A stretch of DNA of 64,000 nucleotides. Origin: Promethearchaeota archaeon. GTDB lineage: Archaea > Asgardarchaeota > Thorarchaeia > Thorarchaeales > Thorarchaeaceae. The notes below the pieces were generated by a model. It was not told the origin of the DNA. It saw only the letters and a program-made list of their open reading frames with translations, and did no database searches. Below, piece by piece: positions 55,825 through 59,842 of this stretch (the first letter of the stretch is position 1; each line of letters opens with the position of its first letter). Location: NCBI GenBank assembly GCA_014728035.1, contig WJMJ01000071.1:133253-197252 (forward strand), in the 5' to 3' direction. Made by a program: the position numbers and the translations under genes.

Positions 55825-57243
55825 ATGGCCGATATTGTTTCTGTTGCAAAGACGGAAAAATTATACACGAATCCCAAAGTATTGATTATTGCTATAGACG
55901 CGATGCTTATTATGCTCGGATTTGGCATCATTGCGCCTTCCATGTCGTTCTATCTTTTTGCTTTAGAGGGCCAATTAACCCAACCTCCCGGTCCTGATTA
56001 TATCATTCCTCCAGAAATAGTTGCAGAATTTTCGTTGATTCTCGGAATAATGATGGCATCATTCATGGGCACTCGTACTCTTCTCGCGCGGTATTGGGGT
56101 GGAGTTAGTGATATGCGTGGGAGAAAACCAATTTTGAATACTGGCCTTTTAGGATATGTTGTCCTACTAGTTCTTTTTGGATTTGCACAGAATTGGATTC
56201 ATCTCTTGATTATTAGGGCTTTGCAAGGTGTCGTATCTGCAATGACGTGGCCTGTTGCTGAAGCAGCTTTGATGGATATTGTGGGTATTGAAAGAAGAGG
56301 TGAAGGACTGGGTCTCTACATGGTAGTTTCAAACATTGGCTTCATAACGGGTCCCGGAGTTGGAGGTCTCCTTTATAATTTCTGTAGAGATTTCTTGCTA
56401 CTTCCTGTACCTGATGTCTTCAGAGTCCCGTATTTTATTGCTGCACTCATCACCTTACCAGCTGCGATTTTTACTGCTGTCTTATTAAAAGAAACTGCTC
56501 CTGGCAAAGTTGAACATCACGAGTCGGATCAGCAAAAGCTGGAGTCTGATATGGGAACTACATCACACCAATCTATTATTGAATCTGATGGACCTGAAAC
56601 CGAACAAATGGATGACAAAACGAGAAAAATGGTTCATGCTCTTTATGTAATGGCTGTGATGAATGGAATTGCTATGGGCCTTGGGCAACCAATATTTCAG
56701 CTATTTCTTATGAGTAAAATCACGACCGATATAGGCCTAATCGGTCTTGTAATCTCTGGAGCAGGTGCAATTGGTATGCTATTTTCAATTCCTGCAGGGA
56801 GATATGCTGATAAGAAAGGTCGGAAAGGATTAGCTGTATGGGGTGCAGCTGGTGCAAGAGTTAGCTATTTCGCACTACCTTTGACTACCAACCTAGCTCA
56901 GACCAGTATTTTTTGGATTGCTCAAAATGCATCATTCTCAGTTTCTCAACCTGCAATGCGAGCAATTCAAGCTGATGTAGTCCCATGGAATCTAAGAGGA
57001 AAATTGTTTGGAACTATTCAAGCTTGCTTTAATGCTGGGGCAACAATCGGTCCTCTTGCAGGAGGATGGTTGTTTGGTTATTTTTCACTCCTTCTTTTTC
57101 CCATTGGCCCATTCATTATAGAAGGTCTTGTAGTCCCATTTTGGTTGGCTTCGATATTAGGAATGATTGGTGTATTTCTGTTATGGAAATATGTTGAAGA
57201 AACACATCCAAGTCAAGAAACAACTCCTGAAGGTCAAGAGTAA
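55825..57243 (+). CDS. MFS transporter (DHA1-like)
   Basis: GGVSDMRGRK, RALQG, GRYADKKGRK, GATIGPLAGG. About 12 TMs. Confidence 0.9.
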   Translation: MADIVSVAKTEKLYTNPKVLIIAIDAMLIMLGFGIIAPSMSFYLFALEGQLTQPPGPDYIIPPEIVAEFSLILGIMMASFMGTRTLLARYWGGVSDMRGRKPILNTGLLGYVVLLVLFGFAQNWIHLLIIRALQGVVSAMTWPVAEAALMDIVGIERRGEGLGLYMVVSNIGFITGPGVGGLLYNFCRDFLLLPVPDVFRVPYFIAALITLPAAIFTAVLLKETAPGKVEHHESDQQKLESDMGTTSHQSIIESDGPETEQMDDKTRKMVHALYVMAVMNGIAMGLGQPIFQLFLMSKITTDIGLIGLVISGAGAIGMLFSIPAGRYADKKGRKGLAVWGAAGARVSYFALPLTTNLAQTSIFWIAQNASFSVSQPAMRAIQADVVPWNLRGKLFGTIQACFNAGATIGPLAGGWLFGYFSLLLFPIGPFIIEGLVVPFWLASILGMIGVFLLWKYVEETHPSQETTPEGQE

Positions 57244-57274
57244 TGATTTGAAACTCAGCAAGCTATTGCGTGCC

Positions 57275-57291
57275 GGGAAAAACATATATAC
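57275..57291 (+). promoter_or_regulatory. BRE/TATA promoter of the RIO kinase operon
   Basis: gggaaaaa-catatata-c. Predicted transcription start near 57314. Confidence 0.6.
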
Positions 57292-57343
57292 TAACCTTCG
57301 TAGAATGGACTTAATGCTTCGATAAATGGAGGTGTAGGTCAAA

Positions 57344-57406
57344 ATGACAGTCAAATTTCAAATAACTAATGTAGTAGGTACCTGCACTCTCGTTGTGAGA
57401 GTCTAA
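57344..57406 (+). CDS. Putative 20-aa leader peptide MTVKFQITNVVGTCTLVVRV
   Basis: Strong SD GGAGGTG at 57328-57334, ATG at 57344, TAA at 57404. Its 3' half overlaps the 5' arm of the RNA structure. Confidence 0.6.
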   Translation: MTVKFQITNVVGTCTLVVRV

Positions 57407-57626
57407 GGACTCCGCTACTTCTCAGTTTTCAACTCTCTATTACGCGTCGGACTGTTGATTCTAGAGGTCCAGCTTGTTGTTCAGGTATTTACTGTTTTTC
57501 AGAGATATTGTGCTATGAATACAGACGCGTGCAGGCTCAGCAATGAGAGTGAACAAAAAGTTGCAAACACACACTAAGAAACATTGTCCGAGCTATGGTT
57601 ACAGGCAGTGATCATGGTGGGCGGAC
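57381..57626 (+). promoter_or_regulatory. Structured 5' leader with mutually exclusive helices (putative translational attenuator)
   Basis: Helices read by eye: 57385-95/57541-51; 57442-48/57524-30; 57485-91/57516-22; start-codon hairpin 57586-602/57608-26; alternatives 57447-56/57580-91 and 57470-83/57550-63. Confidence 0.6.
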
Positions 57627-58417
57627 CAGTAGAGAAATTCAACCCGCTAAAACCAAGTGCTATCTCCCAGAAACGGGAACGACAAACTGATGGCAAATGG
57701 GCAAAACAGGTTGCAATAAAAGAAATCACGTTAGAAGATGTTAGGCATGATGCCATTGAATTCGGTCTTGCGACAGAAGTATTGGCTCAAGTCAAAGCAG
57801 GAAAAGAAGCATCGATTTTCATCGCAAAGTGGAAGGAGCATCCGATCATGTTGAAAGCATATCGCCTCTGGAGGTCTGCTCAAGCCAGTAATGAACGAGG
57901 TGTGTTTACTCTTGCTAAGATGCAGATGCTAGCTGCTAAAGAATATGATGTGCTTAAGGAATCATTTCAAGCAGGTGTTACAGTTCCCACTCCAATTGGT
58001 CGTGTTGGAAATTACATCACAATGCGATTCATTGGCGACGGTCTTGACCCAGCACCTCAATTGAAAGATGTACATCTTGAAAACCCTAATCAAGCATTGG
58101 ATGCGATTCTTGAAGAATATCTAAAGATGTATCGAGATGCAAATTATGTTCATGGAGACCTAAGCAAGTACAATATTTTGTGGTGGCAGAATCGTCCTTG
58201 GATTATAGATGTACCTCAAGCCTATACGGTTGGACCGTGGGCGAATATGAAAGAAGTAGTATTCCTACTTCGTAGAGATATCAAGAATCTGCTTTCCTAC
58301 TTCAAGCGTTACGGAATCAAAAGAAATCTCGATGAGATTGTAGATGTATTTCTCAGTGAGTATGTTCCTGAGAATCTTCGTCATTATGATGAGGTAGTAC
58401 CCTTCAGAGGTGTCTAG
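57614..58417 (+). CDS. RIO1-family atypical kinase/ATPase (copy A)
   Basis: AGKEASIF, LKAYR, VPTP, HGDLSKYNIL, IIDVPQA, LRRDIKN. Likely start ATG 57614. Confidence 0.9.
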   Translation: MVGGPVEKFNPLKPSAISQKRERQTDGKWAKQVAIKEITLEDVRHDAIEFGLATEVLAQVKAGKEASIFIAKWKEHPIMLKAYRLWRSAQASNERGVFTLAKMQMLAAKEYDVLKESFQAGVTVPTPIGRVGNYITMRFIGDGLDPAPQLKDVHLENPNQALDAILEEYLKMYRDANYVHGDLSKYNILWWQNRPWIIDVPQAYTVGPWANMKEVVFLLRRDIKNLLSYFKRYGIKRNLDEIVDVFLSEYVPENLRHYDEVVPFRGV

Positions 58418-58418
58418 T

Positions 58419-59234
58419 TTGGTTGTAGAGAAACATAATCCTTTGAAGAAGAGTATCCTACAATCGGAGCTCCTTGGCGAAGGCAAGACACAGATAGAAG
58501 AGATTTCTTTTGATCTGGTCAAACGATTAGCATTGAAATATGGACTAGCTACTGACGTACTCTATCAGATGAGTGCAGGAAAAGAAGCTTCTATTTTCTT
58601 AGCTCTCTGGAAAGAACATCCAATCATCTTGAAGGCATATCGTCTATGGCATTCGTCTCATACACTCTCAAAGAAGAAGGGCTATGTACCTCCTGGCACA
58701 TCTAAACGTTCTCATGTTATTACTGACATGATGGAATCTTTGGCTGTCCTCGAATATGACCTTCTATCAAAACTGTTCAAAGCTGGAGTTCATGTTCCTA
58801 CTCCAATTGGTCGCATTGGCAATTTTGTATCAATGCGTTTTATTGGTGACGGAGAAACACCGGCTTCTCAACTGCGAGAGATTACCTTAGAGAACCCTGA
58901 GAGAGTGATGAATCAGATCTTTGATGACTATCTCATCATGTATCGAGATGTTCACTACGTCCATGGAGACCTCAGTCAATACAATATACTGTATTGGCAA
59001 GATCGTCCTTGGATTATTGATGTTCCTCAAGCCGAGAAGGTTGACAAACACTGTAACATGCTCAAGATTGAGAAGATGCTACTACGTGATATTCAGAATG
59101 TGCTCTCGTACTTTGAACAGTACGATATCTATCGTGACCCTGAGAGTATCTTGGAAGTGTTCTTGAACTCATACATTCCTGACAACAAGCGACACTATAG
59201 GGAGCTCGTTCCAGAGGGTCTTGAATTACTATAG
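58419..59234 (+). CDS. RIO1-family atypical kinase/ATPase (copy B)
   Basis: AGKEASIF, LKAYR, HGDLSQYNIL, IIDVPQA. TTG 58419 follows SD GAGGTG, which lies inside the end of copy A. Confidence 0.9.
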   Translation: MVVEKHNPLKKSILQSELLGEGKTQIEEISFDLVKRLALKYGLATDVLYQMSAGKEASIFLALWKEHPIILKAYRLWHSSHTLSKKKGYVPPGTSKRSHVITDMMESLAVLEYDLLSKLFKAGVHVPTPIGRIGNFVSMRFIGDGETPASQLREITLENPERVMNQIFDDYLIMYRDVHYVHGDLSQYNILYWQDRPWIIDVPQAEKVDKHCNMLKIEKMLLRDIQNVLSYFEQYDIYRDPESILEVFLNSYIPDNKRHYRELVPEGLELL

Positions 59235-59246
59235 GAGGTAATAACC

Positions 59247-59534
59247 CTGACAAAAGCCTTACCAAGAAGTGCCGTTATTGTTCTAAGACACCTATCCACA
59301 AAAGGACCAATGTGTCCTCAGGATATCAGTGAGTGTTCTAGTTTAGCTCCTCGTACAGTAAGTTTTGCATTACGTCGTCTTGTTAAAGCAAAACTTGCAA
59401 AGAAGATTCCCAATCTTTCTGATATGCGAAGGCCACTTTACACTCCAAACAATGATGGCATCTACGAAGTTGTCCAGAAGAATGGACAAGATTCCATTAT
59501 TGGTACACAGTTATCCATGATTACACGGAGATGA
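59247..59534 (+). CDS. Archaeal MarR/ArsR-like winged-helix regulator, probable CTG start
   Basis: SD GGAGGT at 59234-39, then CTG at 59247 in frame with ORF 59310. This adds helix LPRSAVIVLRHLSTKGP before M.PQDI...RTVSFALRRL...DMRRPLY. Confidence 0.75.
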   Translation: MTKALPRSAVIVLRHLSTKGPMCPQDISECSSLAPRTVSFALRRLVKAKLAKKIPNLSDMRRPLYTPNNDGIYEVVQKNGQDSIIGTQLSMITRR

Positions 59535-59538
59535 AATC

Positions 59539-59682
59539 ATGAAGTCTAATTGTGAAACCAGTAAACCTAGTACAAAACGAGATTGTGGTGAGTCTTTGGA
59601 CCACAATGGTTCACATATCACTCGATATATCGTTGAGGAACAAAAGTTGAATACTGAAATCGAGAGCGAGTTAGTTTACTGA
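59539..59682 (+). CDS. Putative 47-aa small protein ending the RIO operon
   Basis: SD GGAG at 59527-30. MKSNCETSKPSTKRDCGESLDHNGSHITRYIVEEQKLNTEIESELVY. The stop lies inside the terminator hairpin. Confidence 0.4.
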   Translation: MKSNCETSKPSTKRDCGESLDHNGSHITRYIVEEQKLNTEIESELVY

Positions 59683-59699
59683 CTTGCTCTTTCTTTTTT
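59663..59699 (+). terminator. Hairpin plus U-tract terminator closing the RIO operon
   Basis: agagcgagttag-ttta-ctgacttgctct followed by ttctttttt. Confidence 0.75.
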
Positions 59700-59842
59700 G
59701 ATTTTCTTCGTTTCATTCTAATAATATTTCAAATAGAAATCTTATACCTATTATCCACTGGATAGATTAAGTGACCCGTCTGGAAAGCACCACACGGGTG
59801 AAAATTATTCTGTTCCCCTTCACATTTGGTATTGCCGTAAGA

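Follow-up and report, generated by a model that had tools for sequence, protein, structure and literature searches.

What controls the expression of RIO-A and RIO-B, two tandem genes for RIO-domain proteins that stand behind a gap of 370 nt in a genome of the Thorarchaeaceae? The locus lies in a stretch of 64,000 nucleotides from a Promethearchaeota archaeon (assembly GCA_014728035.1, contig WJMJ01000071.1, positions 133,253 to 197,252, forward strand), hereafter called the window and numbered from its first letter, in which an MFS transporter gene ends at 57243 and the gap follows. An earlier note on this DNA had read the gap as the leader of one apparent transcription unit, with a promoter, a strong Shine-Dalgarno (SD) sequence, a 20-codon upstream open reading frame (uORF), a structured spacer and a hairpin hiding the RIO-A start, and had suggested that stalling of ribosomes on the leader peptide switches on extra RIO kinases. 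All the elements listed stand at the coordinates given, and the unit they form is conserved well beyond chance. The comparative evidence indicates that the leader is real, deeply conserved, archaeal and previously undescribed. We further consider it probable (roughly 0.6) that it acts in cis, gating a lineage-specific RIO operon through uORF translation and competing helices; stalling on the peptide finds no such support.

A Conserved Reading Frame in the Leader

Comparisons were based on 54 leaders from 54 genomes in 15 genera of the same family, with some structure tests using 27, 49 or 55 leaders. The uORF is preceded by its own ribosome-binding site (SD1, GGAGGUG), whose 7 nt are the exact complement of the 3′ end of the 16S rRNA from the same genome (...GGAUCACCUCCU). 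This 16S rRNA, located by an Rfam small-subunit search, is assembled only as a 3′ fragment at a contig end (L104, G000:C92:1-140, minus strand), terminating in GGAUCACCUCCU. In every one of the 54 leaders an ATG lies 8–12 nt past SD1 and opens a frame of 18–26 codons, as opposed to 0/54 and 4/54 leaders in which the +1 and +2 frames are open over the same span. The distances from this ATG to an anti-SD motif inside the uORF are 33, 36, 39, 45, 48 and 54 nt, all multiples of three, and the codon phase of the motif is kept in 52 of the 54 leaders and 14 of the 15 genera; the indels thus keep the frame, and the uORF noted earlier proves to be conserved.

The encoded peptides follow a different pattern. 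They are poorly conserved inside the family, where close relatives carry non-conservative changes, and unrelated between families, the only shared motif being Cys-Thr (Ala-Thr-Ser in a second family), residues that are shared because the anti-SD nucleotides encode them. Since the frame is kept and the peptides diverge, selection seems to act on the act of translation rather than on its product. Taken together, this is a strong comparative signature that the uORF is translated.

The module extends beyond the Thorarchaeaceae. The RIO subfamily to which RIO-A and RIO-B belong occurs in two more families of the phylum, referred to here as f12 (19/19 genomes) and f20 (10/12), and 19 of 20 loci from these two families show GGAGGTG, an ATG 5–10 nt further on and a uORF of 21–28 codons, 50–370 nt before the RIO start. 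SD1, uORF and internal anti-SD precede the orthologous RIO gene together at 13/14 loci in f12 and 6/6 in f20, with an upstream TATA box and a hairpin at or past the stop codon also present. Within f12 the uORF peptide is fairly conserved. In one f12 genome (G206; L088:350-590) an insert of ~230 nt apparently splits the front of the uORF from its usual end (GGCAGCUACUAG and a U-rich hairpin).

Inside the Thorarchaeaceae, a gap of ~290–580 nt lies 5′ of the first RIO gene whatever the upstream gene (MFS or others, on either strand), and its alignment across genera shows, in order, TATA, GGAGGTG, ATGA, CTGCAC, a C/U tract, ACGCGTC...GACGCGTG, CAATGAGAGTGAA and GTTGCA. Genera g6 and g4 carry an insertion (L006, L010, L015, L028) that separates the GUUGCA box from the RIO start and whose own hairpins pair the RIO SD. 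The leader is single-copy in its genome, an nhmmer search giving no second copy. A TATA-like box stands 39–54 nt 5′ of SD1 in most orthologous loci, again regardless of the upstream gene, and no conserved TATA-like box is seen directly 5′ of RIO-A in the leader alignment. We predict that the purine run resembling a transcription factor B recognition element (BRE), together with the TATA box, is the promoter of the leader-RIO unit, from which the transcription start is inferred. Directly 5′ of the BRE/TATA, several genera share a GC-rich motif with the approximate consensus TGGCGCTGACC (57250–57282 in the window, and orthologous loci), a possible operator, perhaps for the winged helix-turn-helix (wHTH) protein encoded downstream.

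Helices of the Leader

Coordinates and pairing partners of the structural elements are given in Table 1. The first, P1, joins SD1 to the anti-SD element within the uORF. Its core pairs (57331–36/57383–88) can form in 98% of cases across 27 leaders, and the test of cognate against non-cognate duplexes gives z = −3.8, compared with +0.3 for a reversed-partner control; in f12 an analogous P1 of 17 bp buries SD1 plus the uORF AUG. P2 is a hairpin of 5–7 bp whose loop, in the majority of 55 leaders, contains or adjoins the uORF stop codon. When 49 leaders were aligned with a covariance model, double changes appeared at all 7 of its pairs; 59 cells carry such changes, a count that none of 500 shuffles reached (mean 26.5), and the covariation score is 0.485, with ≤0.20 for slid controls. 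For the C/U-rich tract that follows P2, two partners are conceivable: SD1 (7 pairs, 95%), or a purine-rich, SD-like sequence in the 3′ part of the spacer (the GA box), in which GUG is invariant. The pairs are mostly G-U with little covariation, and the helix between tract and GA box (P0) was for this reason not adopted.

The second use of the anti-SD region is a long-range helix, P7, between the end of the uORF and the GA box. Some 72% of its cells are paired, compared with 23–42% in slid controls, and six pairs change on both sides; none of 500 shuffles reached the paired fraction and 3/500 reached the covariation score. An OFF-state helix at exactly these positions had been proposed for the window, and the comparison supports it. 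Because P1 and P7 share the CAC(U) bases they are mutually exclusive, and SD1 and the GA box compete for the anti-SD.

Between these elements lies the P3 domain, whose closing helix (57442–48/57524–30) changes on both sides in 5/7 pairs (GC/AU, CG/UA and others) and, at z = −11, served as the positive control of the duplex test. The spacer had been described as structured and ~240 nt long; its structure stands, and its length from uORF stop to RIO-A ATG is 207 nt.

At its end, P5 (11 + 5 bp) buries the second SD (SD2, GGCAGUGAUC, 57604–57613) and the RIO-A AUG (57614), and the pairing probability of the start codon in the window leader is 1.0. An equivalent start-burying hairpin, built from different sequences, is present in most genera. 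Start regions with a folding energy below −18 kcal/mol are found in 54% of the leaders, compared with 5% of 300 SD-led control genes from the same genome. At the first position of the RIO start codon, base and partner change together (CG 6, UA 6, UG 4), and 11 cells change on both sides, a value reached by 9/500 shuffles. Both minimum free energy (MFE) and centroid folds of the window leader reproduce P1, P2, P3 and P5. The earlier note had named a conserved uORF and compensatory changes in orthologous leaders among the tests on which its proposal should stand or fall; both were found, and the proposal survives these two.

Two technical points bear on these figures. RNAalifold on plain MAFFT alignments returned only P1 plus a 4-bp hairpin, or nothing, because the registers of the hairpins differ between genera, a difficulty that the covariance model solved for P2. 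Duplex z-scores against mononucleotide shuffles were uninformative.

Further pairings were compared. GCUCAG (57535–40) is fully complementary to CCGAGC (57588–93) in several genera but does not reach significance against column shuffles, and the 3′ half of the uORF, or the P2 and C/U region, co-varies with the interior of P3 (z = −3 to −4), a signal that is partly base composition. In the consensus fold of the f12 leaders the last uORF codons and the stop (GGCACUAG) pair with the GUG start of the RIO gene (AGUGCC).

Table 1. Elements of the leader and genes of the RIO unit, in window positions.
Feature	Position	Strand	Basis
BRE-like purine run and TATA box (ATATATAC, 57284–57291), predicted promoter	57273..57291	+	read from sequence
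SD1, GGAGGUG, uORF ribosome-binding site	57328..57334	+	invariant in all aligned leaders; present in f12 and f20
uORF, 20 codons (MTVKFQITNVVGTCTLVVRV), stop TAA 57404–57406	57344..57406	+	ATG 9 nt past SD1
Anti-SD-like element inside uORF (CCUGCACUCUC), pairs SD1 57328–57338 (P1)	57381..57391	+	pairing comparison
P7 5′ strand (CACUCUCGUUG), uORF codons 14–18, pairs CAAUGAGAGUG at 57541–57551	57385..57395	+	comparative
P2 hairpin (GAGUC / GACUC), uORF stop codon in loop	57399..57412	+	covariation
Conserved C/U-rich tract (CGCUACUUCUCAG) directly 3′ of P2	57413..57425	+	conserved block CGCUGCUUCU in alignments
P3 domain, UACGCGUC (57441–48) with GACGCGUG (57524–31), enclosing ~75 nt of variable hairpins	57441..57531	+	
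Conserved 3′ block: GCUCAG linker, CAAUGAGAGUGAA (SD-like GA box, 57545–57553), GUUGCAAAC (57560–57568)	57535..57568	+	
P5 hairpin, GUCCG.GCUAUGGUUAC with GUGAUCAUGGU...CGGAC	57586..57626	+	fold and comparison
RIO-A, RIO-domain kinase/ATPase, 267 amino acids (aa)	57614..58417	+	PF01163, E = 5.5e-35
RIO-B, paralogous RIO kinase, start TTG 58419 or GTG 58410	58419..59234	+	PF01163, E = 1.8e-34
Small winged-helix (MarR/ArsR-like) protein, 95 aa, apparent CTG start	59247..59534	+	weak Pfam MarR/HTH matches
47-aa open reading frame, doubtful status	59539..59682	+	no Pfam match
T-rich run (T6 at 59694–59699), likely archaeal termination signal	59690..59709	+	read from sequence

How the Leader Might Work

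A ribosome reading the last six codons of the uORF would have to melt P1, P7 and P2. Such melting could refold the spacer and change whether P5 keeps the RIO-A start closed, and RIO-B and the wHTH gene, tightly coupled to it in translation, would then be expressed as well. In the OFF state P7, P3 and P5 are probably combined, and the candidate helix of the ON state is GCUCAG 57535–40 with CCGAGC 57588–93. The control could have either sign: translating the uORF may switch RIO on or may switch it off, and the competition between P1 and P7 fits both. In f12, where the end of the uORF pairs the RIO start, uORF translation would therefore activate. No direct pairing between uORF and RIO start was found in the window leader, so that any link there would run through P7 and the spacer.

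Several observations weigh against this gating by competing helices and should be kept in mind. In folding energy the leader does not surpass shuffled sequences (z = −0.7), and the MFE fold of the window leader has the uORF and P5 modules as independent units. Neither P6 (GCUCAG/CUGAGC) nor PK (CUCAUUGA/UCAAUGAG), the candidates for the ON state, is significant against column shuffles, and their cognate versus non-cognate signal is moderate (z = −3.2, compared with −1.4 for a composition control). Of the alternative helices hiding the start codon that had been proposed, the start-hiding P5 holds and the ON-state helix does not pass this test. The f12 pairing of uORF end and RIO start is invariant on both strands, hence shows no covariation, and shrinks to 4 bp in genus g48. 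Finally, genera g2 and g12 have neither P5 nor GA box, so that the read-out would differ between genera, and in genera g6 and g4 ~110 nt are inserted before the RIO start.

A more far-reaching suggestion, which we put forward as speculative and rather improbable, is that the leader senses initiation-competent small subunits and feeds ribosome maturation back onto its own assembly factor. SD1 would then be contested by the 3′ end of mature 16S rRNA and the anti-SD copy inside the mRNA, and the GA box, as a downstream mimic of an SD, would compete in turn for this internal anti-SD. How far 30S subunits occupy SD1, and how ribosomes pass through the uORF, would then determine the spacer fold and with it the synthesis of a lineage-specific RIO factor that acts on the small subunit. 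If true, three Asgard families would share such a feedback loop.

Other Explanations for the Leader

The gating described above has to be weighed against four other explanations. The P3 domain and the GA box could instead be a binding site for a protein or ligand, for instance in an autoregulation by RIO, the wHTH protein or a ribosomal protein, with the uORF doing no more than adjusting the basal level of translation or the stability of the mRNA. Sites bound by ligands or proteins typically contain conserved single-stranded blocks, and the leader has such unpaired blocks (UGUGCUAUGAA, CAAUGAGAGUGAA and GUUGCA) together with P3, a closing helix that covaries. However, the interior of P3 is variable in length and sequence, no Rfam match was obtained even at E = 10, and the feature conserved in all three families is the module of SD1, uORF and anti-SD, not the spacer; as for the wHTH protein, its gene is linked to RIO in only 5/15 genera. 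We regard a binding site of this kind as rather unlikely.

Stalling in the manner of the bacterial ermC and cat leaders, in which an inducer or a ribosome defect arrests the ribosome on the leader peptide and frees the RIO start as a ribosome-stress response, was the reading favored by the earlier note. The layout would suit it, with a leader reading frame behind its own SD, a helix from leader to spacer (P7) and a hairpin burying the start (P5). What such a sensor would need from the peptide was not found: the uORF peptides are divergent within and across families and contain no recognisable arrest motif or conserved nascent-peptide stalling motif, the residues they share being accounted for by the anti-SD. 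In addition, one segment ought to pair in turn with the leader and the P5 arm, and here the bases concerned are not the same, and the helix that should prevent sequestration of the start is not significant. This part of the proposal is thus unlikely to stand.

A third possibility is control at the level of transcription, with P2 and the pyrimidine tract serving as a site of premature termination or of aCPSF1/FttA entry that a ribosome at the stop codon suppresses, as in pyrBI or tna attenuation or polarity. In all three families the stop codon does lie in the loop of a hairpin with a C/U-rich tract behind it, f12 has a conserved run of U5–U7 8–15 nt past the stop, and some members of the Thorarchaeaceae have T5–T6. 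Most leaders of the family, that of the window included, have CUUCU-like tracts with T runs of 2–4, which are weak for archaeal intrinsic termination, the U run of f12 sits inside a small hairpin loop, and P5 and P7 would be left unexplained; we therefore consider attenuation of this type highly unlikely. That the small reading frame encodes a functional micropeptide in an otherwise ordinary long 5′ untranslated region is hardly tenable, as the conserved open frame and the f12 peptide that would favor it stand against a lack of peptide similarity across families, non-conservative changes between close relatives, the strong RNA constraints (P1, P2, P7) that overlap the frame, and its fixed position relative to the RIO gene.

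The RIO Genes and Their Neighbors

Archaeal Rio1 and Rio2 are non-essential ATPases involved in maturing the small ribosomal subunit (Knuppel et al., 2018, PMC5815136). The RIO-A start is fixed by the conserved N-terminus xxVEKFNPLK, and like these proteins RIO-A and RIO-B have a RIO domain whose motifs for catalysis and metal binding are intact (HGDLSKYNIL and IDVPQA in RIO-A, HGDLSQYNIL and IDVPQA in RIO-B, in agreement with the patterns HxDLSxxN and IDxxQ). Unlike them, they form with their f12 orthologue a clade apart from Rio1 and Rio2 in a quick maximum-likelihood tree (SH-aLRT 99), they are restricted to three families of the phylum, and they score below the family cut-offs, with 105 and 94 bits against 480 for the NCBIfam Rio1 model (NF041310) and 86 and 80 bits against 350 for the PA4780 RIO1-like, bacterial RioB-type model (NF041645). 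Unlike Rio2, they also have no N-terminal wHTH: no Rio2_N domain (PF09202) was detected in either protein.

The distribution of the subfamily is marked. Either as a single gene or as a tandem pair, this RIO type is present in 24/24 sampled genomes of the same family, and over the whole family in 70/86 genomes, many of which are incomplete; beyond f12 and f20 it was found in none of the other sampled families of the phylum. Rio2_N gave no significant match in this genome or in 24 relatives from the family, and of 16 genomes from the phylum's other families 13 have it. Possibly this distinct RIO subfamily stands in for Rio2.

The housekeeping Rio1 gene, expected to lie elsewhere near aIF1A and a KH-domain gene, was found between exactly these two on contig C25. 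The cluster reads aIF1A, Rio1, KH-domain protein and a TopoVI-B-like gene (L001, G000:C25:163507-167061), and is preceded by a possible NMD3-like reading frame. RIO-A and RIO-B are therefore separate from the housekeeping gene, as had been claimed; as members of a distinct subfamily present in three families, they are not casual extras.

RIO-B is 52% identical to RIO-A, and RIO-B types form a supported clade. Its TTG start at 58419 has GAGGUG 6 nt before it, with the RIO-A stop (58415–17) in between, and the alternative GTG at 58410 overlaps that stop; the junction (58403–58421) is typical of tight translational coupling. In a relative from the same genus (G001:C1, L027) a single RIO gene combines the first five codons of RIO-A (MVGGP) with a RIO-B-type protein (91% identical), as if the tandem paralogues had recombined and the sequence between them had been deleted; the leader was kept.

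The wHTH reading frame is open from 59235, and its Pfam matches begin before the first canonical start, ATG 59310, which would cut off helix 1 of the winged helix. Orthologues start, after a GGAGGT site, at the codon aligned to CTG 59247, with TTG in the same genus and ATG or GTG elsewhere. In the window, too, a GGAGGT site precedes the gene. The family is multi-copy, with 3–9 paralogues per genome. Two further ideas on this gene were rejected. Here and in G001 one TAG is all that separates it from RIO-B in the same frame, as in a read-through fusion, yet other orthologues have ATG or GTG starts of their own in other frames; a split Rio2, consisting of RIO and a separate wHTH, agrees neither with the missing Rio2_N match nor with the copy number, nor with linkage to RIO in so few genera. 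A counterpart of the 47-aa reading frame turned up in no genome but the same-genus relative (47% identity); behind the wHTH gene of G009 and of G002 none was found. Oligo-T tracts are termination sites of archaeal RNA polymerase, and the T-rich run at the end of the unit is accordingly read as its likely terminator. Of the members ascribed to the unit, RIO-A, RIO-B, the wHTH gene and the T tract can be retained, and the 47-aa reading frame is doubtful.

Comparison with Known Systems

Rfam 15 gave no match in the window at the gathering threshold and for 57100–57750 only a chance match at E = 9. Literature searches returned no description of such a leader; nor did we find in the literature searched, or know of, any mechanistic description of control by a uORF or leader peptide in archaea. 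To our knowledge very few cis-regulatory RNAs have been described in archaea, and none in Asgard archaea. The leader could provide a concrete case of translation-coupled control in the closest prokaryotic relatives of eukaryotes, one that can be mutated at SD1, anti-SD, GA box, P2 and P5, and it precedes paralogues of small-subunit maturation factors. The data also point to a third RIO subfamily in a lineage without recognisable Rio2.

Partial likenesses to several classes of RNA control are evident. As in ROSE and fourU thermometers and in riboswitch platforms, an SD is masked by an anti-SD, SD1 pairing in P1 with one of the CACC type, and as in platforms of anti-SD and anti-anti-SD a second SD-like purine box competes for the anti-SD through P7; here, unlike there, the masked SD belongs to the uORF and the anti-SD lies in coding sequence. 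From the trp, his and ilv attenuators the leader differs in that the sequence behind P2 is a C/U tract whose T runs are short, and no run of regulatory codons is conserved across leaders, the window peptide having 6 Val. The f12 pairing of uORF end and RIO start resembles operon coupling in bacteria and the Min Jou interaction between the coat and replicase genes of MS2, unlike which the upstream frame of the Thorarchaeota leader is a mini-gene and not a structural gene. In the MS2 case, translation of the upstream frame melts a long-distance helix.

The closest parallel is with the bacterial erm and cat attenuators (ermCL-ermC, cat86, cmlA). As in these, a leader reading frame with its own SD lies 5′ of the regulated gene, on the comparative evidence of SD1, ATG and open frame, the SD and start of that gene are held in a hairpin (P5, in the window and most genera), and a helix ties the leader reading frame to structure further downstream; a ribosome translating the leader would therefore have to remodel the RNA. 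In terms of their 1:2, 2:3 and 3:4 helix scheme, the equivalent of 1:2 (P7) is supported, and the candidate for 2:3 is P6, with the z-score and column test given above. Unlike them, the leader is archaeal, some 290 nt long with a 75-nt intervening domain, it masks its own SD with an anti-SD inside the leader reading frame, and it has neither a conserved arrest peptide nor a known inducer. Since there is no stalling motif and the middle alternative helix is a candidate, we would place the leader beside the erm and cat attenuators, as an element that probably works like them, and not among them.

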